The notes under the pieces are model-generated. The model searched no databases. It was not told the DNA's origin and saw only the letters and a program-made list of their open reading frames with translations. Below are positions 176 through 30,012 of a DNA stretch of 30,012 nucleotides, piece by piece. Position 1 is the first letter of the stretch, and every line of letters starts with the position of its first letter. The DNA is from a virus, in UHGV virus genome UHGV-0120925; one strand, given 5' to 3'. The position numbers were made by a program, and so were the translations under genes.

Positions 176-724
176 TCAGCTAGCTGGAAACTTTTTATAC
201 AGAGTTGAGAGCCCTACTCCATACGTTTTTGATACGCTTTGTCGTGATTCACCGGTTGCCATCCGCTCCCCCATTTCCCGCCATTGCTCATCCGTGAACT
301 TAGGCCTGCGACCACCAACTCGCCATTTTGCCCTGGCTACGGCCAGCCCTGCTAAGGTACGTTCGCTATTAAGATCAGATTCATATTGTGCTGCGGAAAG
401 GATGTTACGAAAGTTATAGCGGCCGCTGGCTGTTTTGAGATCCACGCCATCGGTAATACTGCGGAAGTTGATACCCTTTTCCTGTAACTGCTGGAACATC
501 AACAGCGCATGCAGAACGTTGCGGCCTATCCTGTCCAGCTTCCAGACCACCAGTTCATCCCCCGGCTGCATAGTGGTGATCAGCCGCTTCAGTACCGGAC
601 GATTAGATTTTCTCCCGCTTGCATGCTCTTCAAAAATGTGATCACATCCTGATAACTCAAGGGCAGAGCGCTGAAGTTCAGTATCCTGATGGTTTGTAGA
701 TACTCGGGCATAGCCGTAAATCAT
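176..724 (-). CDS. Serine recombinase, DNA invertase of the Hin/Gin/Cin/Pin family
   Basis: Translation from ATG 724 reads MIYGYARVSTNHQD...LVVWKLDRIGR...ERTLAGLAVARA...GVGLSTLYKKFPAS, matching the N-terminal catalytic serine region and C-terminal HTH of Hin/Pin. RBS AGGAGA upstream. The longer track ORF from 769 is an upstream extension. Confidence 0.92.
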   Translation of the reverse strand: MIYGYARVSTNHQDTELQRSALELSGCDHIFEEHASGRKSNRPVLKRLITTMQPGDELVVWKLDRIGRNVLHALLMFQQLQEKGINFRSITDGVDLKTASGRYNFRNILSAAQYESDLNSERTLAGLAVARAKWRVGGRRPKFTDEQWREMGERMATGESRQSVSKTYGVGLSTLYKKFPAS

Positions 725-779
725 GGGATTTCTCCTGTTATGAAAACAGGAGAAACGGCGAAGCATCACCAGATTTTTG

Positions 780-19654: not shown

Positions 19655-21412
19655 TTATAATGAACGGACGCCGTAACTTTCCAGATGGTCAGAGAGGCTG
19701 TCCTGTTGTTCGCCGCCGTTTACAAGCATGCGGCTCATTGCGGTAAACAAGGCGGCAGGCCCGTCTATTTTCGCTTCTGGCGTGGATTTGTTCGGAAAGA
19801 TATTGTCGTTTTTGTCAGGCTTGACGGTGACGTTAGACATCATCCAGTTCATAACCGGATGATTGCTGTGATGAAAACGCCCGCCATAAACCAGAGACTC
19901 CACCTCTTTCATTGACTCAGAAAAGTTTCTGACCGTCTGCGGAACCTCCACCAGCGGTACACCCTCTTCTGCCAGAGCCAGGCTAAACTGCGTTGCGCTC
20001 CACGGATCGAATCCCGTTTCCTTCAGGTTTTCGCCGCTAATCCATTCCAGAAAATCAGCCTTAATCTGCGCGTGATCGATAACATCACCATCAGTCAGTT
20101 CCAGCTTCCCAAGCTCAGCCCATTTACGGTACATCTGCGCCATTTGAGCGGAACATTTTTCCAGCCGCCCTTCGGGTAACCAGAATTTAAAGTCTGCATG
20201 CGCGTGACCGTTGTCTGCCCGCCAGAGTTTTACTGCTGCGCAAATATCAATCTTGTGGGCCAGATCCACGCCAGCCCACATCGGGTAGGTTTTCAGCTCA
20301 TGACGTGGGGCTATAAACTCACAGTTTTCCCACTTAATCATGTCCATCCAAGCTGACTCAGCGGTCACCCAGATATTCATGTGCTTGGTGAAAAAGTTAA
20401 CCCTGGCGGAAACCTGTTCTTTGGCCTTCTTAGCCAGACGGCGAAGGTCATCCCAGCGCTTACAGATACCGAGTCCGGGGTTAGCCTTTTGCCAGACCGT
20501 TTCATCAAACGGATCATCATCTTTATCCAGGGTGAAGATGATGGCGAAAAAAGTGTCATCCTTCACCGCGCCTTCCACTTCGCTGTTATAGCCACGCAGC
20601 ACCTTAATGGCATAATCGCGCAGCTCGTAACAAATCCCTTCTTTATTAAACCCGGCTGTCGTTATGCCAAACAGAAGAGACTGCAATCGTGCGCCGGTTG
20701 CAGTCTCCAGAACATCCCAGACATCACGGGTTTTATGCGCATGAAGTTCGTCGACGATGCCACAATGGATATTGAGACCATCCAGATTGTTGGCATCAGA
20801 AGAAAGCGGTTCAAACTTGGATGCTGTCTGCTCCTGGTAGATCGCCAGTTTATTGAATTCAAACAGTCGCCCCAGTGTGGGTTTCGCTTTTTTAACCATG
20901 TTTTTCGCATCTTCAAAAACGATGCGAGCCTGATCCCGCGTTGTCGCTGCGGAATAAACCTCTGCCCCACCCTCACCATCGGCGCCAGCCATATAAAGAC
21001 CAACACCAGAAGATAATGTCGACTTGGCGTTTTTACGGGCTACCTCGTTATATGCTGTGCGAAACCGGCGGACCATCACCGGACGACCGCTGCCATCATT
21101 ACGCAGCACAACTTCGCCTGTTTCTTCATTTACCAGGGGGATAACAAAACCGAAGATGTTGATCAGAATGAAAACATGCCAGTCCATCAGCTCAATCGGC
21201 TGGCCTGCCAGTGCTCCTTTAACATGAGGCACGAATTTATAAAAATTGAGGATATGTTGTGCGCGGGGCTCGCTGAAATAGATGCCACGTTCTTCACCGT
21301 GCTTCAGATCATCAAGAAATCGCTGACAGGAAAGACGGACAAATTCACAGGCAATAACCTCCCCGGCAACGACGCGTTCGGCGTAACGTATGCCATCAGT
21401 AACTTTTGCCAT
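19655..21412 (-). CDS. Terminase large subunit
   Basis: 585 aa with ATPase and nuclease regions typical of phage TerL. Start overlaps the terS stop. Confidence 0.93.
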   Translation of the reverse strand: MAKVTDGIRYAERVVAGEVIACEFVRLSCQRFLDDLKHGEERGIYFSEPRAQHILNFYKFVPHVKGALAGQPIELMDWHVFILINIFGFVIPLVNEETGEVVLRNDGSGRPVMVRRFRTAYNEVARKNAKSTLSSGVGLYMAGADGEGGAEVYSAATTRDQARIVFEDAKNMVKKAKPTLGRLFEFNKLAIYQEQTASKFEPLSSDANNLDGLNIHCGIVDELHAHKTRDVWDVLETATGARLQSLLFGITTAGFNKEGICYELRDYAIKVLRGYNSEVEGAVKDDTFFAIIFTLDKDDDPFDETVWQKANPGLGICKRWDDLRRLAKKAKEQVSARVNFFTKHMNIWVTAESAWMDMIKWENCEFIAPRHELKTYPMWAGVDLAHKIDICAAVKLWRADNGHAHADFKFWLPEGRLEKCSAQMAQMYRKWAELGKLELTDGDVIDHAQIKADFLEWISGENLKETGFDPWSATQFSLALAEEGVPLVEVPQTVRNFSESMKEVESLVYGGRFHHSNHPVMNWMMSNVTVKPDKNDNIFPNKSTPEAKIDGPAALFTAMSRMLVNGGEQQDSLSDHLESYGVRSL

Positions 21413-21909
21413 CAGTCCCTCGAATTAAGAAATTGACTTAACAGATCATCATCGTCTGGTTTGTCTTTACTGACCTTAGACCTGCTGGAAGGCGTCATAC
21501 CAAACTCCGCTAACATCGCGCGAAGTCGCTTCCAGGCATCAGCTTTCATCATGGCTGCCGGATGCGGCTTGATCATGCGTATTTCACGCTCTTTCCCTTC
21601 ATCAGCATCATCATCGCTGTATACCGCATAGGTATAACCTTCCCGATCCAGCGTTTCACAATGATGGCGGTATTCCGTATATGCCTCTACCAGCAACTCC
21701 AGAGCCCTGGCATCCAGCTGAGATATGACGCCAATGGCATCAAGTTCTTCGGCCATCCGCTTAAACCAGTACTTCCCCTGCTTGTCGAAATGCTTGGGAA
21801 CTGGGGGGACCCCTTTAGGTGGCTGCGGCTCGTTTTTGTTGATTGGTCGTTTGGAAGGGTTACCCCTCACCAAACGCAGATGGGTAGGGGTTTTCGGCGG
21901 TCCTGACAT
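21412..21909 (-). CDS. Terminase small subunit (P27 family)
   Basis: RBS AGGAG before ATG 21909. 165 aa with a basic N-terminus and acidic C-terminus. First gene of the minus-strand late operon. Confidence 0.82.
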   Translation of the reverse strand: MSGPPKTPTHLRLVRGNPSKRPINKNEPQPPKGVPPVPKHFDKQGKYWFKRMAEELDAIGVISQLDARALELLVEAYTEYRHHCETLDREGYTYAVYSDDDADEGKEREIRMIKPHPAAMMKADAWKRLRAMLAEFGMTPSSRSKVSKDKPDDDDLLSQFLNSRD

Positions 21910-22443
21910 AATCGAAAACTCCTATTAATCATCGGCTGTGGGACCCCAAAAAAAGTTTTCTAACCTGCGGCGATGTGAAGAAAGGCTAGGCGGCGGTCCT
22001 TTTGGCGCCCGGTTACAGGGATTTGACCTCCCCCTCCCCTCCACATCCGTTGATGGTAATCATTATCATTTGAAGCGTTCACGCCCTGTTTTCGAGCGGT
22101 GGCAAGGCCAGCACAGGCTTTCAAGGTTCGAATCATCATCGGTACACGTAAACGTGCTGTATCACCGGGTGCGATCCGGTCGGTGAGAGAGTATCCCCGC
22201 GCGAGAGCGAGAACGGCGTGAGAACGGGCAACACTGGCAGGGAGTTGGCGCTGACCAATACAGGGAATGTTATGGGATGTGGTGAAGGGTTCATGGACGG
22301 GAATATGTCGCACGTAAAGCGGCGAGGCCCGAGGAGCTATTGCCGAAGATAAGTAGGCCGAATCGGGTCGAAATGGGTCTCCCACCTACCACAGCACCAA
22401 AGCATTTCTCCCGCATCAGCGGGTAACTAAGTGGAGAGTAAGT
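21910..22443. promoter_or_regulatory. Non-coding divergent control region between the late (minus) and early-left (plus) operons; likely holds promoters and the packaging site
   Basis: About 530 bp with no RBS-supported ORF. GC-rich, with short direct repeats (GAGAACGG twice at 22207..22226). Exact promoter and cos/pac positions cannot be fixed from sequence alone. Confidence 0.4.
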
Positions 22444-22632
22444 ATGCACAAGTGTCAATTCTGTGGGTACTTTCTGGCATCTGAAGAGATGCAGAGAATA
22501 TCTGTAAACATGGTTGGCAGGCCTTACAACATCTGCATTCCATGCTCAGAAAAGTACAAAAAGAAAGGCCTGTGGGATTCGGCAAAAAACGATATCGACT
22601 GGAAAGCACTTCCATGCGTCGATGAGACATAA
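22444..22632 (+). CDS. Small zinc-ribbon protein (CxxC...CxxC), unknown function
   Basis: RBS GGAGAG. 62 aa with Cys pairs at residues 4/7 and 31/34. First gene of the plus-strand early operon. Confidence 0.6.
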   Translation: MHKCQFCGYFLASEEMQRISVNMVGRPYNICIPCSEKYKKKGLWDSAKNDIDWKALPCVDET

Positions 22633-22665
22633 CCGCATCAGCGGGTAACGACAGAGGGTAAGGGG

Positions 22666-22962
22666 ATGATCGACGACATCAAGCGCATCGACTCAATGAT
22701 AAATGCGCTTCGCAATATGAAACAGGACATCAAGCGTCAGCAGAAACTAAGTGAAATAAACAGTTTAGACCTGTCGCCGAAGCAAGCTCAAAAGCGCAAT
22801 GCCGATGCTGACTGGATTGCGATGGAACAGATTAAGCGTCGGCATGAGCTGCACGCTCTGTCTGTTGAGCTTGGGTTCGCTGAGCGCCGGGAAAGTTATG
22901 CTCCATTTGAATTAACTGACGGGTGGCACCGATTCGACCACAAGCCGCGCGAACCTCAATAG
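22666..22962 (+). CDS. Hypothetical protein (98 aa)
   Basis: RBS AAGGGG. Preceded at fixed spacing by the repeated 17-nt motif. Terminator follows. Confidence 0.55.
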   Translation: MIDDIKRIDSMINALRNMKQDIKRQQKLSEINSLDLSPKQAQKRNADADWIAMEQIKRRHELHALSVELGFAERRESYAPFELTDGWHRFDHKPREPQ

Positions 22963-22984
22963 CCGCCTAACCAGCGGCTTTTTC
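22961..22984 (+). terminator. Rho-independent terminator within the early operon
   Basis: AGCCGC-CTAACCA-GCGGCT followed by TTTTT, overlapping the stop codon of the 98-aa ORF. Confidence 0.55.
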
Positions 22985-23118
22985 ATACCTGGAGTCATTT
23001 ACGAGTGGCTCAAGTTATGACAACCGGCGGCCATCCACCGCCCATTGAAACACTGAATAAATGCGTTGAAGTCTTGTATTAACCGTTCCGTTCGCCGCGA
23101 TAAGGCCAAGAGGAAATC

Positions 23119-23325
23119 ATGGTAAACCAGCACTACGGTACACAGACAGTAAACCGCGGCGCAGTTCAGCCGGGGATGCTCGTCAAACACAAGGATTCAA
23201 CCTGGACGGCATCAGCTAATGCTCGTGGTCGTTTGTATCTGCATCGCGGCGTTGAGATGACTTACACCAGGGATTTGCTGGTTGAAGTTTATCTGAACGG
23301 TCTGGGGAATGGCCTCAGCCATTAA
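23119..23325 (+). CDS. Hypothetical protein (68 aa)
   Basis: RBS AGAGGA before the ATG. No recognisable family. Confidence 0.45.
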   Translation: MVNQHYGTQTVNRGAVQPGMLVKHKDSTWTASANARGRLYLHRGVEMTYTRDLLVEVYLNGLGNGLSH

Positions 23326-23358
23326 CGGAGAGTTGCCAAAACACTTTAAGGACAGGTG

Positions 23359-23517
23359 ATGAAAAAAGAATGTGGTTATTGCCACAAGCCTGTTGAAGAA
23401 GGCGCAGAAGTAAAGAGCACCTTGCTCTATCTCAACGGTTCGCAACTGGCACAGAAAGAAAAAGAATATTGCTCTAAGCAATGCGCTGAATACGACCAGA
23501 TGGCGCACGAAAGTTAA
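23359..23517 (+). CDS. Small zinc-ribbon protein (52 aa), found by hand because it is below the ORF-track cutoff
   Basis: RBS AAGGACAGG before ATG 23359. MKKECGYCHKP...YCSKQCAEY has CxxC and CxxxC pairs. Confidence 0.45.
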   Translation: MKKECGYCHKPVEEGAEVKSTLLYLNGSQLAQKEKEYCSKQCAEYDQMAHES

Positions 23518-23602
23518 ATAGCAGTCCTGAAATATGAAATGAAAAATTCGCCATTAATTTGGCGCGGCTTCTTACACCCTTAATTTAACAACTGGAGATT
23601 TT

Positions 23603-23890
23603 ATGGAAATCGTAAAAATCGAAATGAACCTGAAAGCAGTGAATAAAGAAGTGGCTGCATTCAACTGCGAGAAGAAAGTATCAGGCGTTATTCACTCAAC
23701 TACAAACGGTGAAACAACAGTCATTCTCGACGGTGGCTATGTGCTTGGCAAGTTTGATTGCCCGCACTGCGCCATTGAGGAGATCAGCTTGCTGGTACTC
23801 AAAATCAGCGATAGCGATTACGCCGGCTGGGGAACCTACCGTACATACAAGCAAGATTTTATGAATGAGGCGATCGTAGCCGTCAGTTAA
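23603..23890 (+). CDS. Hypothetical protein (95 aa) with CxxC pair
   Basis: RBS GGAG before the ATG. Followed by hairpin GCCCAC-CGAA-GTGGGC (23897..23912) without a U tract. Confidence 0.5.
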   Translation: MEIVKIEMNLKAVNKEVAAFNCEKKVSGVIHSTTNGETTVILDGGYVLGKFDCPHCAIEEISLLVLKISDSDYAGWGTYRTYKQDFMNEAIVAVS

Positions 23891-24030
23891 GCGAAAGCCC
23901 ACCGAAGTGGGCCCGCCATGTCCGGCCTCACCGACCAAAGTTACACCGGAAACAACATTAAAACCAAAGTTAACCCAATGGGCGCTATCAATGGTCCGGG
24001 GATTCTAACACCCAAAAATGAGGATCTCAC

Positions 24031-26937
24031 ATGGAATTCTTTAATGTGGTTAAAGCCACTCAGAAATCCGGAAAGCAAGATGCAGTGGTCTGGTTCACTG
24101 CTAAAACCGAGGCTCGCGCCAATCTGATGCTGGATGTTGCGCTGGAAGATGCAGGTATCGAAACAGGTCGGGGTAAGGACTACGCCAAACCGATTCGCAC
24201 TGATTTCCCAGTTGTCGACGGCCTGCCGAAAGAAGGTGAAGTTGATTTTACCTGGTGTGATCGCTACGAGCTTCATGACGATGGGCGCACCTGGCTGCCA
24301 AAAGTCACAGCTGAAAACTCTGACGAGAAAACGGCTCAGACCGTTGATAGTCACATAACTACTGAGTCAACGCTGTCAGAAACCGCTGGCATCACGCTGG
24401 ACGAACACGACGACGACTCAACCCTCTACCCGGTAGTGCAGATGCCGTTTCGTAAGCAACTGCTTTCCCAGTTCACCGCCGACGAACTGCGCCACCACGT
24501 AACCCATGAAGAGTACGAAGCTATCGGCGCGCTGGAGATGGACACTGATAACAGTTACGTCCAGAACTTGCTGTTAGCTGCTGAGAACTGCCCGGAAGTG
24601 AAGGGTTACGACACCAAAGACCTGTGGCGTTACACCGATGCCATTCGCAAAGTGTTCAGCCAGGACAAGCGTCACGAACTCGCGCTGGTACTCCGTTTCA
24701 CCAGAATGTGGGCGGCGACTGATTACATTGACCGTGGCATCCTGGCGCGTGAATGGGCCGCCGGTAATCGCATCAGTAGTGTGCAGCGTACTGATTCCGG
24801 CACTAATGCCGACGGCGGTTACGTCACTGACCGTGGACCTGAGGCACACCACACACTGGACACTCTCGATTTAGAGATTGCGTGTGCCCTTCTGCCTATG
24901 GACTTCAACCACTTCGAGATCCCGGGCAGCATTCTTCGTCGCGCTAAAGAAATCGTGACCAAAAAAGAAGAACCATGGAAATCATGGAGCAACATCCTGC
25001 GCAATCAGCCAGGCGTTCTGGGTGTTAACCGCACGGCTATTTTTAACCTGGTACGTATCGCACCGGAAAATATTCATTTAACTCCTGTCGCTCACCTGGA
25101 ATTTGTTAACCAGACCATGACAGCCGCGTTCAATTCCGCGGTCGAGTTATTGCCGTTGCATGAAGCTGAACCCGCAGCACAGGAAATTCCCCAACCTGAA
25201 GGTAAGGAGTCTCCGCGCAAATCCTTCTGCACTCACGAAGAGAACCTGCAACGCGTGCGTGAAGAAGGAGCACGCCGCCGCGCAGAGGAAGCGGCAGCAC
25301 AACCGCAGAAAGTCGAACAAGAACTGGTTAAAAATGTCGGCAACGGAATATTCGACGTTACGGCTTTGCTGCAGAACTCAGCAACTCATGGCACGAAAAA
25401 GGCTACGGAGACCACCAGCAATGTGCAGGTTCAAGAAACTGTCAGTGATGAAAAACAAGCTGGTGATGAAGTACAGCCAGGCGAAAGCAGTCTGGAGTCT
25501 GGTGAAGAGTCAGATACCAGCCAGAAGGACGATGTAGACCAGAATACGGATTCTGTCGCCAAAAATAGCGATTCTGTAAGCCAAACCGAACCAGTTGCAA
25601 CACAAACCGAGCCAGAAGCGCAATCTGACGAACCAGCTGTTGTTTATCCCGCTTATTTCGAGCCAGGCCGCTATGAAGGGCTGCCAAACGAGGTTTACCA
25701 CGCCGCCAACGGCATCAGCTCAACCCAGGTGAAAGATGCGCGCGTTTCGCTGATGTACTTCAATGCGCGCCACGTAGAGAAAACCATCGTCAAAGAGCGC
25801 TCAGCGGTGCTGGACATGGGCAACTTGGTGCATGCGCTGGCGTTGCAGCCTGAACTACTGGACGCAGAATTCAGCGTTGAACCGGTGATCCCTGAAGGCG
25901 CATTCACAACGGCCGCGACCCTGCGCGCCTTTATCGATGAGCACAATGCCAGCCTGCCGGCGCTGCTGTCTGCCGACGACATCAAGGTGTTACTGGAAGA
26001 GTACAACGCCACCCTGCCGCCGCAGGTTCCGCTTGGCGCTAACCTGGAAGAAACGGCACAGAACTATATGGCGCTGCCAGCTGACTTCCAGCGTATTGAT
26101 GGTGACCAGAAGCAGACGGCGACGGCAATGAAGGCATGCATTAAAGAGTACAACGCCACCCTGCCGCCGCCGGTTAAAACCAGCGGCAGCCGTGACGCGC
26201 TGCTGGAGCAGTTGGCAATCATCAACCCTGACCTTGTGGCTCAGGAAGCACAGAAACCGGCACCACTGAAAGTGTCCGGTACCAAAGCAGACATGATCCA
26301 GGCCGTGAAGGCAGTCAAACCAGATGCCGTATTTGCCGACGAACTGCTGGATGCCTGGCGCGATAACCCGGAAGGAAAAGTGCTGGTCACCCGCCAGCAG
26401 CTGAGCACCGCGCTGAATATTCAAAAAGCGCTTCTGGCACACCCGACCGCCGGCATGCTGCTGACCCACCCTAGCCGAGCCGTTGAGGTGAGCTACTTTG
26501 GTTTTGACGAGGAGACGGGCTTGGAAGTTCGTGTGCGCCCTGACCTTGAGATCGACCTGGATGGCGTGCGTATAGGTGCAGACCTGAAAACCATCAGCAT
26601 GTGGAATGTTAAGCAGGAAAGCCTGCGCGCCAGGCTACACCGGGAAATTATTGAACGTGATTATCACCTGAGCGCGGCTATGTACTGCGAAACCGCAGCG
26701 CTGGATCAGTTCTTCTGGATTTTCGTCAACAAAGACGAGAACTACCACTGGATCGCCATCATCGAGGCATCCGCTGAACTACTGGAGCTGGGTATGCTCG
26801 AGTACCGCAAAGCGATGCGCAATATCGCAACCGGATTCGACACAGGTGAATGGCCAGCGCCAATCACTGCTGACTACACCGACGAACTGAACGACTTCGA
26901 CCTGCGCCGCCTTGAAGCGCTGCGTACTCAGGCATAA
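24031..26937 (+). CDS. recE: RecE-like exonuclease VIII (C-terminal PD-(D/E)XK nuclease domain) with long N-terminal extension
   Basis: 968 aa immediately upstream of recT. C-terminal region ...YFEPGRYEGLPNEVYHAANGISSTQ...DLEIDLDGVRIGADLKT... is consistent with a RecE/YqaJ-type nuclease. Central acidic low-complexity stretch. Confidence 0.8.
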   Translation: MEFFNVVKATQKSGKQDAVVWFTAKTEARANLMLDVALEDAGIETGRGKDYAKPIRTDFPVVDGLPKEGEVDFTWCDRYELHDDGRTWLPKVTAENSDEKTAQTVDSHITTESTLSETAGITLDEHDDDSTLYPVVQMPFRKQLLSQFTADELRHHVTHEEYEAIGALEMDTDNSYVQNLLLAAENCPEVKGYDTKDLWRYTDAIRKVFSQDKRHELALVLRFTRMWAATDYIDRGILAREWAAGNRISSVQRTDSGTNADGGYVTDRGPEAHHTLDTLDLEIACALLPMDFNHFEIPGSILRRAKEIVTKKEEPWKSWSNILRNQPGVLGVNRTAIFNLVRIAPENIHLTPVAHLEFVNQTMTAAFNSAVELLPLHEAEPAAQEIPQPEGKESPRKSFCTHEENLQRVREEGARRRAEEAAAQPQKVEQELVKNVGNGIFDVTALLQNSATHGTKKATETTSNVQVQETVSDEKQAGDEVQPGESSLESGEESDTSQKDDVDQNTDSVAKNSDSVSQTEPVATQTEPEAQSDEPAVVYPAYFEPGRYEGLPNEVYHAANGISSTQVKDARVSLMYFNARHVEKTIVKERSAVLDMGNLVHALALQPELLDAEFSVEPVIPEGAFTTAATLRAFIDEHNASLPALLSADDIKVLLEEYNATLPPQVPLGANLEETAQNYMALPADFQRIDGDQKQTATAMKACIKEYNATLPPPVKTSGSRDALLEQLAIINPDLVAQEAQKPAPLKVSGTKADMIQAVKAVKPDAVFADELLDAWRDNPEGKVLVTRQQLSTALNIQKALLAHPTAGMLLTHPSRAVEVSYFGFDEETGLEVRVRPDLEIDLDGVRIGADLKTISMWNVKQESLRARLHREIIERDYHLSAAMYCETAALDQFFWIFVNKDENYHWIAIIEASAELLELGMLEYRKAMRNIATGFDTGEWPAPITADYTDELNDFDLRRLEALRTQA

Positions 26938-26942
26938 GGGGA

Positions 26943-28061
26943 ATGATGATGGAAAACACGAATATCGTAACCGCTGAACAGCAGACTCCAAACACGATCT
27001 CAGCCAGCAATGCCATTTTCAACGTGCAGGCTTTAACCCAGCTTCAGTCTGTCGCCGGGTTGATGGCACAGGCAGCCGTAACGGTGCCTGAGCACCTCCG
27101 CGGCAATCCGGCAGACTGCATGGCCATCATCATGCAGGCGATGCAGTGGGGTATGAACCCTTACGCCGTGGCGCAAAAGACGCACCTGGTTAACGGTGTC
27201 CTGGGATACGAAGCGCAACTGGTTAATGCGGTGATCTCCAGCTCAAACGCCATCGTTGGCCGCTTTCACTATGAGTACGAGGGCGACTGGTCGAAATGTG
27301 CCAGCAGCCGCGAGATAACCGTTAAAAAGCCTGCGAAAGGTGGCGGGACGTACGACAAGAAAGAAATGGTACGCGGTTGGGAAAGTGCTGATGAACAAGG
27401 ACTGTCGGTACGGGTAGGTGCCGTTATTCGCGGTGAAAGTGATATCACCTGGGGAGAGCCTGTTTTACTCTCCAGCGTAATCACACGTAATTCTCCACTT
27501 TGGGTATCAAACCCGAAACAGCAGATCGCTTATCTGGCACTCAAATACTGGGCGCGCCTATATTGCCCTGCAGTTGTTCTTGGTGTGTACACCCCTGATG
27601 AGATTGAACAGCGCACAGAAAAAGAGATCAACCCAACGCCGCAACGCGTTAGCCTGGCTGATATCTCAGGTGACACCGTCACAACCACGCAAAGCGCACA
27701 GGAATCGTCGGTAAATGTCGACTCTCTTGCCGATGATTTCCGCGAACGCATCGAATCTGCTCAGGACGTGGATAGCACCAAATCGCTGCGTGCCGACATT
27801 GAAACGGCGAAAGCTACGCTGGGATCCGCACTATTCACCGAGCTGAAAAACAAAGCCGTAAAGCGTTATTACCTAGTGGATGCACGCAACAAGGTTGAGG
27901 AGGCTATTAAATCCCTGCCCCAGCCCGACGAGCCGCATGCAGCCGAACGGTTCGCTGAAGCCGAGCGCATGCTTACATCTTCAAAGCGTCACTTAGGCGA
28001 TGAACTGCACGATCAATTCAGCATCACCCTGGCGGATATGAAACCGGAATACGTGGCCTGA
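26943..28061 (+). CDS. recT: RecT single-strand annealing recombinase
   Basis: RBS AAGGGG. Region ...CMAIIMQAMQWGMNPYAVAQKTHLVNGVLGYEAQ... matches the RecT family. Paired with the upstream RecE-like gene. Confidence 0.9.
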   Translation: MMMENTNIVTAEQQTPNTISASNAIFNVQALTQLQSVAGLMAQAAVTVPEHLRGNPADCMAIIMQAMQWGMNPYAVAQKTHLVNGVLGYEAQLVNAVISSSNAIVGRFHYEYEGDWSKCASSREITVKKPAKGGGTYDKKEMVRGWESADEQGLSVRVGAVIRGESDITWGEPVLLSSVITRNSPLWVSNPKQQIAYLALKYWARLYCPAVVLGVYTPDEIEQRTEKEINPTPQRVSLADISGDTVTTTQSAQESSVNVDSLADDFRERIESAQDVDSTKSLRADIETAKATLGSALFTELKNKAVKRYYLVDARNKVEEAIKSLPQPDEPHAAERFAEAERMLTSSKRHLGDELHDQFSITLADMKPEYVA

Positions 28062-28099
28062 CGAGACCGGGAGGGGTAACCCTCCCTCAAGGAGATTAT

Positions 28100-28342
28100 A
28101 TGCGACTGATCAATCGAGGAAGTAAGCAATCACCTTTAGCTCGCCAAGCATGCGACATCGCGCTGGCAGCTCACTTGCAAACATATGGCGACTATGGGCG
28201 AAGCAAGATGAAAGAGACTTATACGGTGAAGGTTGAAGGCGTGAAAGTCTGGGTGGAGGTGGTGAACCGAAAGGCGAGCTACGTGGCCACAGCGATGACC
28301 GGCATGCGCCGTCTCCGCTCCCTGCCCGGGCAGGTTGGTTGA
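28100..28342 (+). CDS. Hypothetical protein (80 aa)
   Basis: RBS AAGGAG before ATG 28100. Preceded by the stable hairpin GGGAGGG-GTAA-CCCTCCC (28069..28086). Confidence 0.5.
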   Translation: MRLINRGSKQSPLARQACDIALAAHLQTYGDYGRSKMKETYTVKVEGVKVWVEVVNRKASYVATAMTGMRRLRSLPGQVG

Positions 28343-28383
28343 AAAAGATTTTGAATGGCCCGAACGGGCAACTGGAGAGAGCT

Positions 28384-28581
28384 ATGGATGATATTTTGGT
28401 AACGTCAGACCTGACCAGTCGCTACAAAATTTCACGCAAAACCCTTTGGTCATGGCAAAGTGCAGACACAATGCCTCGGGGCTTCGTATGCCCGTTCCCA
28501 CCCCCTGACTGGCCCGGCAACCCTAACCGCTGGCGCTCTGAGTCAATCAAAGAGTGGGAGGATAAAAAGAAGATAAATTAA
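28384..28581 (+). CDS. xis: Excisionase / AlpA-like DNA-binding protein
   Basis: Start at ATG 28384 with RBS GGAGAG; the track ORF from 28339 begins with TTG. Pattern ...[12 protein letters not shown]...PRGFVCPFP... fits the AlpA/Xis winged-helix family. Converges on the int 3' end. Confidence 0.6.
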
Positions 28582-29771
28582 CTGAAGGGCTCTCCGATGA
28601 TCTCTTCAAGATGGCTCTGCCAAACGCGGAGCCAGTGTTTCTGATCATCGATATAGTCATGAAGGTTGTAATGCGCCATAACCCCCACCATCTGATGCCC
28701 GAGCAGCTTTTCAATTACGTGCGGCGGGCAACCTAACTCAGAGAGATTTGTGGCTATCGTCCGCCTCATATCATGAAGCGACCACTCTGCCATACCTGTT
28801 CCATTCCAAATAGAACGGGCGTAATTGGATGCCACAGGTGAATGAACGGGCGAATCTTTGATCCCGCCATCAATTTTACGTTGTGAAGTCACCAGGTGAT
28901 TGGTGTTTATTTTCTTGAGGTGATTTCTGACCAGGTTAACGGCGGCGTCTGAGAGTCCCCTTCTAATATGTACCCGAGTTTTATAACTGCCCGCAGGCAC
29001 GACCCACTCATTATCATCCAATCGAAACCATGATCTCTCACTAAGTCGAATCTCAGCCGTACGGCATCCGGTAAGCATAATAAATTTCACCAGGAAAACG
29101 GACTCTATCGACATATGGCTTTTCAACCACTGATAGATTTTGCGCAGATCGTCATCGTCCATCCTGCGAGTTCTCTTTTTAGGCTTTTGCCCGACATCAG
29201 ATGGCAGTAATCCCTCGAGTGGGTTTGAGGCGATCACACTTCTGTTAACGCAGAACCTAAACGCCCGTTTGCACAGCGAAAGCATGTAATGAGCCATCAC
29301 CCTGCTTTCTATAGAATCGAAGACGTTGATCCAGTGCATTTTCGCTGTGTTATCGACTTTGACATTCTTCATCGGTTCGGCGATATGTTTCTCAAACACC
29401 TGGCGATAGTAATCGACTTTAACTAGCCCGTTAGCGATACAGTGCCTTTCAATCCAGTAATTGAACGCTTCGGCAACGGACATCGCTTCCTGTCGGGTCT
29501 GCTTATCCAGCTTCACCTGCTCTCGCGGATCCAGTCCCTCAGTTAACCAGTTTCTGAATTGTTGGCGACGCTCTCTTGCCTGGGTGATACTCATTGCAGG
29601 ATAATCACCAACATTGAGTTTTACCGCTTTACCGGCCCAGCGATACCGATAGAAAAATGATATTTTTCCGGCCTGGCTGATTCTGGCGTTGAGCCCGTGC
29701 GAATCAGAAATAATCTCGATATCATCTCTTTTCTTGCCGAGCGCCTTCCTGAGCTTTGTGTCGGTGATCAT
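28578..29771 (-). CDS. int: Tyrosine site-specific integrase
   Basis: C-terminal catalytic region with R...HDMRRT...H...Y residues ([30 protein letters not shown]). Start set at ATG 29771 ([10 protein letters not shown]), typical of P4-type integrase N-termini; upstream in-frame codons run through the GTACACA repeats and are probably untranslated. Confidence 0.88.
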
Positions 29772-29776
29772 TGAAT

Positions 29777-29817
29777 GGGTACACATTTTTGTTTTTGGGT
29801 ACACAAAAGTGTACACA
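29777..29817. repeat. Three direct repeats of G(G/T)GTACACA just upstream of the integrase start; candidate arm-type or operator sites
   Basis: GGGTACACA at 29777..29785 and 29797..29805, GTGTACACA at 29809..29817 (contains the palindrome GTGTACAC). A single GTACACA also sits in the left-end hairpin loop at 136..142. Confidence 0.4.
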
Positions 29818-29957
29818 AAGTTGCCCACTCAAAGCTACACGCAATGTAACACTAGTTCGCAGAGTGTTATGGTTTACATCCTTGAAAGCCTGCTGGATAA
29901 GGGTTTAGCGTAACAGAACGTTTTTACGCGGAATTGTTCGTAATATGCCAAATGACA

Positions 29958-29974
29958 ATTTAAGAAAGTGTTCT
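29958..29974. repeat. Right copy of the 17-bp perfect direct repeat; candidate att core
   Basis: Identical to 39..55. Located 130 bp beyond the integrase start. Confidence 0.4.
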
Positions 29975-30012
29975 GAATAGAGATTCAATATTTAAGGGCA
30001 CGGTTTTTGCAA

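Follow-up and report, generated by a model that had tools for sequence, protein, structure and literature searches.

What is the gene-free stretch that separates the late and early operons of this lambdoid prophage? In the window (the whole 30,012-nt stretch of DNA that was analysed) the gap itself is real. It measures 534 nt (21910–22443) and extends from the start of terS, at 21909 on the minus strand, to the first credible plus-strand gene, orf62, which begins at 22444. The sequence-only reading took it for a GC-rich, compositionally distinct, divergent control region, the likely site of promoters and of packaging (cos or pac), which could also encode a regulatory RNA. Our analysis points elsewhere. 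We put at roughly 0.85 the probability that the gap was left behind as a scar when a single illegitimate deletion occurred in an E. coli lambdoid prophage, which would make it a product of ordinary prophage decay.

The window extends from the 3' end of yciI to the intergenic DNA between int and kch, and thus takes in a complete prophage integrated at the phi80 attachment site. From left to right come a DNA invertase, tail-fibre genes and a lambda-like tail module and then, on the minus strand, HK97-like head genes (capsid, protease and portal), terL and terS. The latter (21412–21909, minus strand) codes for a P27-family small terminase of 165 aa (Pfam PF05119 Terminase_4, E = 3.4e-24) and is the first gene of the late or structural operon, which runs leftward to the tail fibres; the identical protein is present in 2,636 blocks of the collection searched. 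On the plus strand, starting from the gap, there are orf62, a phi80-type N gene, kil, ydaE, an ORF of phrog_2434, recE (968 aa), recT, a DUF4060 gene and xis, with a convergent integrase at the far end of the run. Protein-family scans found no repressor, cro, replication, nin, Q or lysis genes in the window, and neither an HTH or S24 repressor nor a second HNH gene was seen within it.

Some features away from the gap were also observed. At the yciI end, the invertase (phrog_125; 176–769, minus strand) adjoins oppositely oriented tail-fibre and tail-fibre-assembly genes (777–2829), which is the arrangement of an invertible host-range switch of the Pin/Gin/Min type. The stretch 24031–28061 codes for RecE (968 aa, with Exonuc_VIII and a PDDEXK domain) and for RecT, which at 372 aa is unusually long; both are left without pL, and in this they resemble the silent recET of the Rac prophage. 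The sole Rfam match of the window is to isrB, an Hfq-binding sRNA (RF01386), in antisense orientation in the interval that separates the phrog_2434 ORF from the recE start (23892–23989, minus strand; 38.2 bits versus a gathering threshold of 35, E = 0.0013).

The gap and its joint

Two unrelated pieces join at 22143–22145, and the only bases that they share are TAC, i.e., a deletion or recombination joint with a 3-bp microhomology. In a four-way alignment of the window with EC2001 (HNH side) and with G3/10 and phi80 (N-leader side), the window tracks the terS-HNH sequence of EC2001 up to ...CATCGG-TAC and from there follows phi80 and G3/10 as TAC-ACGTAAACGTG... The same point was located by megablast against 5,426 complete E. 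coli genomes, where the matches end or start at query positions 744–746, which are the joint, and BLAST against phages and E. coli gave two non-overlapping sets of matches bounded by it. No record spanning the joint was found by BLAST in phages or in the 5,426 complete E. coli genomes, and the 24- and 25-mers of the junction were absent from the GTDB representatives (two scans), IMG/VR and the JGI metagenomes. With TAC as the only bases that the two parents have in common, the joint bears the hallmark of illegitimate joining mediated by microhomology, and the lack of any match to the junction in the GTDB species representatives, IMG/VR and the JGI metagenomes speaks for a private event and not for a conserved architecture. 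Each half of the gap is conserved elsewhere, but their juxtaposition was found nowhere else in the collections searched, and the halves are never adjacent in the close comparators.

At first sight, the divergent flanking genes, the gene-free 534 nt between them, a tandem 8-mer, several dyads and two weak promoter-like matches would all suit a genuine control region, with late promoters toward terS and early ones toward N, and perhaps with the repeated GAGAACGG acting as an operator and a regulatory RNA. The GC content of the gap is 54.1% versus 50.9% for the whole window, and 23.6% of windows of the same size are at least as GC-rich, so that the composition is hardly distinctive; moreover, it is the right-hand piece, with 56.4%, that raises the value, the cos part having 50.6%. 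The direct repeat GAGAACGG is indeed present twice, at 22209–22216 and 22220–22227. Both copies are unchanged from the phi80-type N leader in the alignment, where the pair lies within the transcribed leader, downstream of pL, and close 8-mer repeats occur in the window at a background rate of ca. 0.29 per 534 nt, so that the pair is not significant on its own.

The dyads are there as well, one across the terS start (21885–21896/21913–21924), CACGTAAACGTG at 22145–22156 and CCCGCATCAGCGGG at 22409–22422, but the folding energy of 22143–22460 is no better than that of shuffled sequences (z = -0.55 for the plus strand and +0.57 for the minus strand). The Rfam covariance-model scan that had been proposed as a check gave no relevant match in the gap, either at the gathering threshold (whole window) or at E <= 10 (21700–22700); the best E-values for the latter stretch, 0.21–0.24, belong to eukaryotic families that score far below their cut-offs. 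With no match and no folding signal, and with a right half that is a leader lacking its promoter, the proposal of a new regulatory RNA finds no support. Regarding promoters, the scan gave two matches in the gap, both on the plus strand and both 9/12 (21903–21932 and 22040–22069), versus 2.3 +/- 1.3 in shuffles, and none directed toward terS; pL, OL and boxA lie beyond the breakpoint.

The left piece: predicted cos site and HNH remnant

The left piece (21910–22145) is 98 to 99% identical to a module of P27/HK97-type prophages in which an HNH endonuclease gene and terS are separated by 156 nt. What is left of the endonuclease gene is its last 25 codons and the stop (22066–22142, minus strand), with the translation TDDDSNLESLCWPCHRSKTGRERFK, 100% identical to residues 92–116 of the 116-aa HNH protein of EC2001; the catalytic and N-terminal part has been deleted. 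When translated over 22066–22146 (minus strand), the sequence reads CTDDDSNLESLCWPCHRSKTGRERFK before the stop, and its residues 2–26 are the ones that match EC2001 residues 92–116. The full 116-aa protein is found upstream of the identical terS in all ten contexts listed, in most of them with the 156-nt spacer, and in these contexts HNH is preceded, where identifiable, by lysis genes. Such contexts are difficult to reconcile with a divergent control region upstream of terS. The gap is therefore not purely non-coding in origin, since 22066–22142 is the exact 3' end of an HNH gene.

The claim that there is no credible ORF stands to the extent that no protein family could be matched. The three mechanical ORFs of the gap, 21938–22186 (plus), 21960–22385 (minus) and 22218–22352 (plus), had no match in the PHROG scan, and the last one, the only one scanned against NCBIfam, had none there. 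The two junction-spanning ORFs (141 and 82 aa) are not recorded as called genes. We rejected the 141-aa one as a gene and regard it as spurious because its frame differs from that of the HNH remnant and it belongs to no family.

Between the remnant and terS, the comparisons support a packaging site of the cos type, apparently intact. The proposal of a packaging site thus survives in its cos version, on the strength of a conserved core and of the likeness to the ends of HK97 and SfV, but not as pac. Among 12 relatives, a Klebsiella phage and mEp235 included, the terS-proximal ca. 95 nt hardly vary, and this is so also in those with a different HNH-proximal spacer. This invariant sequence reads AAGGACCGCCGCCTAGCCTTTCTTCACATCGCCGCAGGTTAGAAAACTTTTTTTGGGG...TAGGAG...ATG, and AAGGACCGCCGCCTA is invariant in all the relatives compared. 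The terS leader (21910–21985, minus strand) includes the ribosome-binding site TAGGAG and a block conserved in the 12 relatives (21944–21979), a candidate TerS-binding site analogous to positions +15 to +29 of HK97. On the other side, the HNH-proximal flank (21996–22065) has a G-run and GTCAAATC (22020–22042) in common with the right ends of the HK97 and SfV genomes. Local alignment of the cos region scored 30 versus the HK97 end (15.1 +/- 2.1 in shuffles) and 42 versus the end of the SfV record (14.9 +/- 2.1).

The record end of HK97 falls on the window between 21986 and 21985 and that of the Proteus phage Pm34 between 21995 and 21996, 10 nt apart. In HK97, the cos ends have 10-nt 3' overhangs and cleavage is stimulated by the HNH protein gp74 (PMC9410871, PMC11331095), and TerS binds 15–29 bp downstream of the cut (PMC11331095). 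The similarity to the HK97 and SfV ends, the 10-nt spacing given by Pm34, the conservation among relatives and the cos biology of HK97 together lead us to predict cosN at 21986–21995, a 10-nt cohesive end with the sequence CTAGGCGGCG on the plus strand and CGCCGCCTAG on the terS-sense strand, and a TerS-binding block at ca. 21944–21979. The transfer of the HK97 TerS-binding site is an analogy only, since BLASTP found no similarity between the terS product of the window and HK97 gp1. Record ends were taken as cos evidence for Pm34, HK97 and SfV; those of mEp235 (exactly before the terS ATG) and Fraca (14 nt before it) were dropped as apparently arbitrary linearisations. Next to this predicted cos, only the stub of an HNH partner is found.

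It should be mentioned that the dyad at the terS start is a 12-nt inverted repeat (21885–21896/21913–21924, 92% complementary) that spans the ribosome-binding site and the start codon. It could occlude the Shine-Dalgarno sequence in the mRNA. One of its arms is coding, and Pm34 shows only partial conservation of the two.

The right piece: N-gene leader and orf62 cassette

The right piece (22143–22443) is 99 to 100% identical to the N-gene leader of phi80, G3/10 and KL53 prophages, and begins exactly at the annotated putative nutL core hairpin of phi80. This hairpin, CACGTAAACGTG (22145–22156, plus strand; "nutL core; putative" among the phi80 features), is kept identical in the window, without boxA and without pL. 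In phi80 and G3/10, pL (with its -35 and -10), three CI operators and the nutL boxA are located 45–200 nt upstream of the break, and the window lacks them all; homology to these two starts 111 nt after the predicted start of pL. The boxA of phi80 is TGCTTTTTA (positions 2450–2458 of the phi80 record), also upstream of the breakpoint. The succession of a boxB-like hairpin, N and a terminator is found in the window. The right half has its homologue in a transcribed leader that carries a putative nut element, and is thus by descent a cis-regulatory sequence acting at the RNA level. Our search of the literature on the phi80 nutL/boxB found nothing specific.

The leader is itself a mosaic, in which two blocks recur separately in other phages. 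Block A (22143–22279, plus strand), which holds both copies of GAGAACGG, is common to phi80 (99% identity), HK225 and Stx2a phages (96%, e.g., TL-2011c). Block B (22273–22402, plus strand) has 85–91.5% identity to HK106, Louie and phi419; in HK106, it is located between an annotated pL-like promoter and an N-like gene and, in Louie and phi419, immediately upstream of an N-like gene or overlapping it. Both are gene-free modules conserved at ca. 85–99% in many Stx and lambdoid phages.

Other details of these blocks were noted. In Stx2a phages of the TL-2011c type (Oslovirus), block A (positions 1201–1337 of TL-2011c), including the nutL core and the GAGAACGG pair, is 96% identical and sits in a gene-free gap of ca. 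750 nt that has a BsuBI-type restriction gene on one side and a Rha-family regulator on the other, with no adjoining N. The motif CACGTAAA appears twice, at 22145–22152 in the nutL core hairpin and at 22311–22318 in block B (GTCGC-ACGTAAA-GCGGC), and the second copy is possibly another boxB-like element. A 26-codon ORF, MGCGEGFMDGNMSHVKRRGPRSYCRR (22272–22352, plus strand), starts at the first base of block B and has an arginine-rich C-terminus and a plausible ribosome-binding site, AGGGA; its 26-aa product (22272–22349), scanned within a 44-aa ORF, had no family match.

Downstream of block B, repeat analysis and the phi80 alignment delimit a hairpin, CCCGC-ATCA-GCGGG followed by TAAC (22409–22427, plus strand). 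It belongs to a 17-nt exact direct repeat, CCGCATCAGCGGGTAAC, with copies at 22411–22427 and 22633–22649 (hairpin CCGC-ATCA-GCGG inside), that brackets a cassette of 222 bp containing orf62. The genome of phi80 has a single copy of the 17-nt repeat and no orf62 cassette, and the repeat is a mosaic boundary in other prophages. Since it precedes varied short ORFs in the N position elsewhere, it looks like a boundary for module exchange or a translational or processing signal. The gene orf62 (22444–22632, plus strand) codes for a 62-aa CxxC...CxxC protein (phrog_19863, PHROG E = 7.9e-44), found exactly in 338 blocks of the collection. In the ten places listed for this widespread gene, it stands downstream of the repressor region, and the N position that follows it is taken by various short ORFs, most of them unannotated. 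In the window, it is followed by a phi80-type N gene of 98 aa (22666–22962, plus strand; phrog_25091), in a region that matches the N region of phi80 in two pieces, 336 bp in all, at 99.4% identity. The corresponding 98-aa product of KL53, whose DNA is 99.9% identical over the stretch, is recorded as PF26859 Phage_N_antitermin. The terminator scan placed a terminator of the phi80 tL1A type at 22961–22979 (plus strand).

Origin of the joint and its consequences

The size of what is missing can be appreciated in the ES5 prophage, which occupies the same yciI/kch site and whose head module and pL operon are 98.5 and 98.7% identical to those of the window. There, the points that match 22145 and 22633 of the window are 11.65 kb apart, and the interval contains the rest of HNH, DUF2829, the lysis genes, Q, nin, the replication genes (O/P among them, between HNH and N), a cro-like gene, a LexA-family repressor and a small ORF. 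The prophage of the window measures ca. 29.8 kb versus ca. 42.2 kb for this full-length relative. No sequenced genome combines the G3/10-type leader and orf62, the recET-type pL operon and the head module. The leader (22143–22632) is 100% G3/10-like, 22633–30012 is 99.8% like strain LR536430, and the head module is closest to EC2001 and ES5. The exact parent and the size of the deletion are therefore deduced from mosaic relatives. The lengths of the head gene products equal those of EC2001 (terL 585 aa, portal 409 aa and protease 217 aa), which makes the deletion look recent.

What the data show directly is which pieces make up the gap, where they meet and that the window lacks the missing modules. 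The event that would explain them is one deletion of roughly 11–12 kb, through the 3-bp microhomology, in a prophage located between yciI and kch. It would have removed the 5' three-quarters of HNH, the lysis genes, Q with the late promoter, nin, replication, cro/cI with their operators and, at its right end, pL, OL and the nutL boxA. There would remain an apparently intact cos of HK97/P27 type directly upstream of terS, a dead HNH stub of 25 codons and, from the putative nutL core hairpin onward, the distal stretch of the leader of N. In intact relatives, Q-antiterminated late transcription gets to terS by way of the lysis genes and HNH, whereas N depends on pL, which CI controls. These native promoters, pL in the case of N and the Q-dependent late promoter in that of terS, lie within the ca. 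11.6-kb segment of the full-length relative. Both flanking operons would thus have lost their native promoters, and for this reason the region probably has no designed regulatory role.

An illegitimate recombination between two prophages, e.g., tandem lysogens at att-phi80, one with a P27/HK97-type head and the other phi80/G3-10-like, seems unlikely to us. The three ancestries (a G3/10 leader, an LR536430-like right part and an EC2001/ES5-like head) that no genome combines could be read in this way, but the mixed ancestry is accounted for by lambdoid mosaicism, through exchange at the 17-nt hairpin repeat, and needs no tandem lysogeny. For the region, this origin gives the same outcome, a non-functional scar. 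We find it quite improbable that the joint is an assembly artefact, i.e., a chimeric joining of contig ends within an intact prophage of ca. 42 kb or between two prophages. In favour of an artefact, the junction is unique among all the collections searched, and lambdoid prophages share repeats that often break assemblies. However, the two sides overlap by only 3 bp, whereas long repeats are where assemblers mis-join, and their order and orientation are those to be expected if one prophage at one att site underwent a simple internal deletion. Host flanks, yciI and kch-side DNA, were found at the two ends of the window.

Even less probable, in our view, is a helper-dependent, satellite-like element, an idea that would suit a repressor-less prophage with an intact cos, a complete set of virion genes, int/xis and a promoter-less nutL core, N and recET. 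A co-resident lambdoid phage of P27/HK97 type would have to supply HNH, activators and lysis in trans, and the ca. 29.8 kb of DNA would be packaged via its own cos. Finally, we give hardly any credence to a genuine divergent control region, since the gap holds a truncated gene and a leader severed from its promoter, operators and boxA, its halves are never adjacent in the complete E. coli genomes, IMG/VR, JGI metagenome contigs and GTDB representatives searched, and the repressor gene is absent from the whole window, the repressor and Cro-type genes of relatives being within the segment missing here.

If the gap is a deletion scar, as we favour, several consequences can be expected. With their promoters missing, the late genes and the N-kil-recET operon would be silent or receive only fortuitous read-through. 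The predicted cos would be cut only with terminase and an HNH partner provided in trans, and the prophage would be defective and non-inducible. Recognising the scar keeps it from being annotated as a regulatory region or as a non-coding RNA locus and flags the prophage as defective (no repressor, replication genes, Q, lysis genes or HNH). The locus also illustrates cleanly how a prophage decays through microhomology, the promoters of both flanking operons being lost together. For the widespread prophages with a P27-type terS, a concrete cos cut site can be predicted, CGCCGCCTAG, with the invariant flank AAGGACCGCCGCCTA.

The remains of this locus can be compared with well-known systems. In the HK97-type arrangement (gp74, cos and gp1/gp2; also in SfV, phiP27 and mEp235), cos likewise lies downstream of an HNH gene and directly upstream of terS, and the window cos has the G-run, (G/A)TCAAATC and GACCGCCGCC motifs in common with the right end of HK97. 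The 10-nt spacing of the HK97 and Pm34 termini on the window fits the 10-nt 3' overhang of HK97. Unlike the HK97 locus, the HNH partner here has been cut to 25 codons and terS belongs to the P27 family. The phi80 leader from pL through nutL to N (JX871397, depositor annotation) is 99% identical over 22143–22427 of the window, and the likeness resumes 33 nt before the N start and continues into N and then to the tL1A terminator. With respect to it, the window lacks pL, the three CI operators and the nutL boxA and has the 222-bp orf62 cassette as an extra.

Defective lambdoid prophages of E. coli that arose by internal deletion are known, for example, Rac with its silent recET. As in the Rac-like case, the prophage of the window keeps int/xis, kil and recE/recT, the latter pair without their usual promoter, and essential functions of regulation, replication and lysis are gone. 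In contrast to the Rac type, the head and tail set is apparently complete and the repressor has been lost too, and the deletion looks recent and private to one strain. The components are all of already known kinds, namely, a cos with HNH, a phi80-type nutL/N leader, lambdoid mosaic boundaries and Rac-like decay, and their combination is a strain-specific scar and not a new system.
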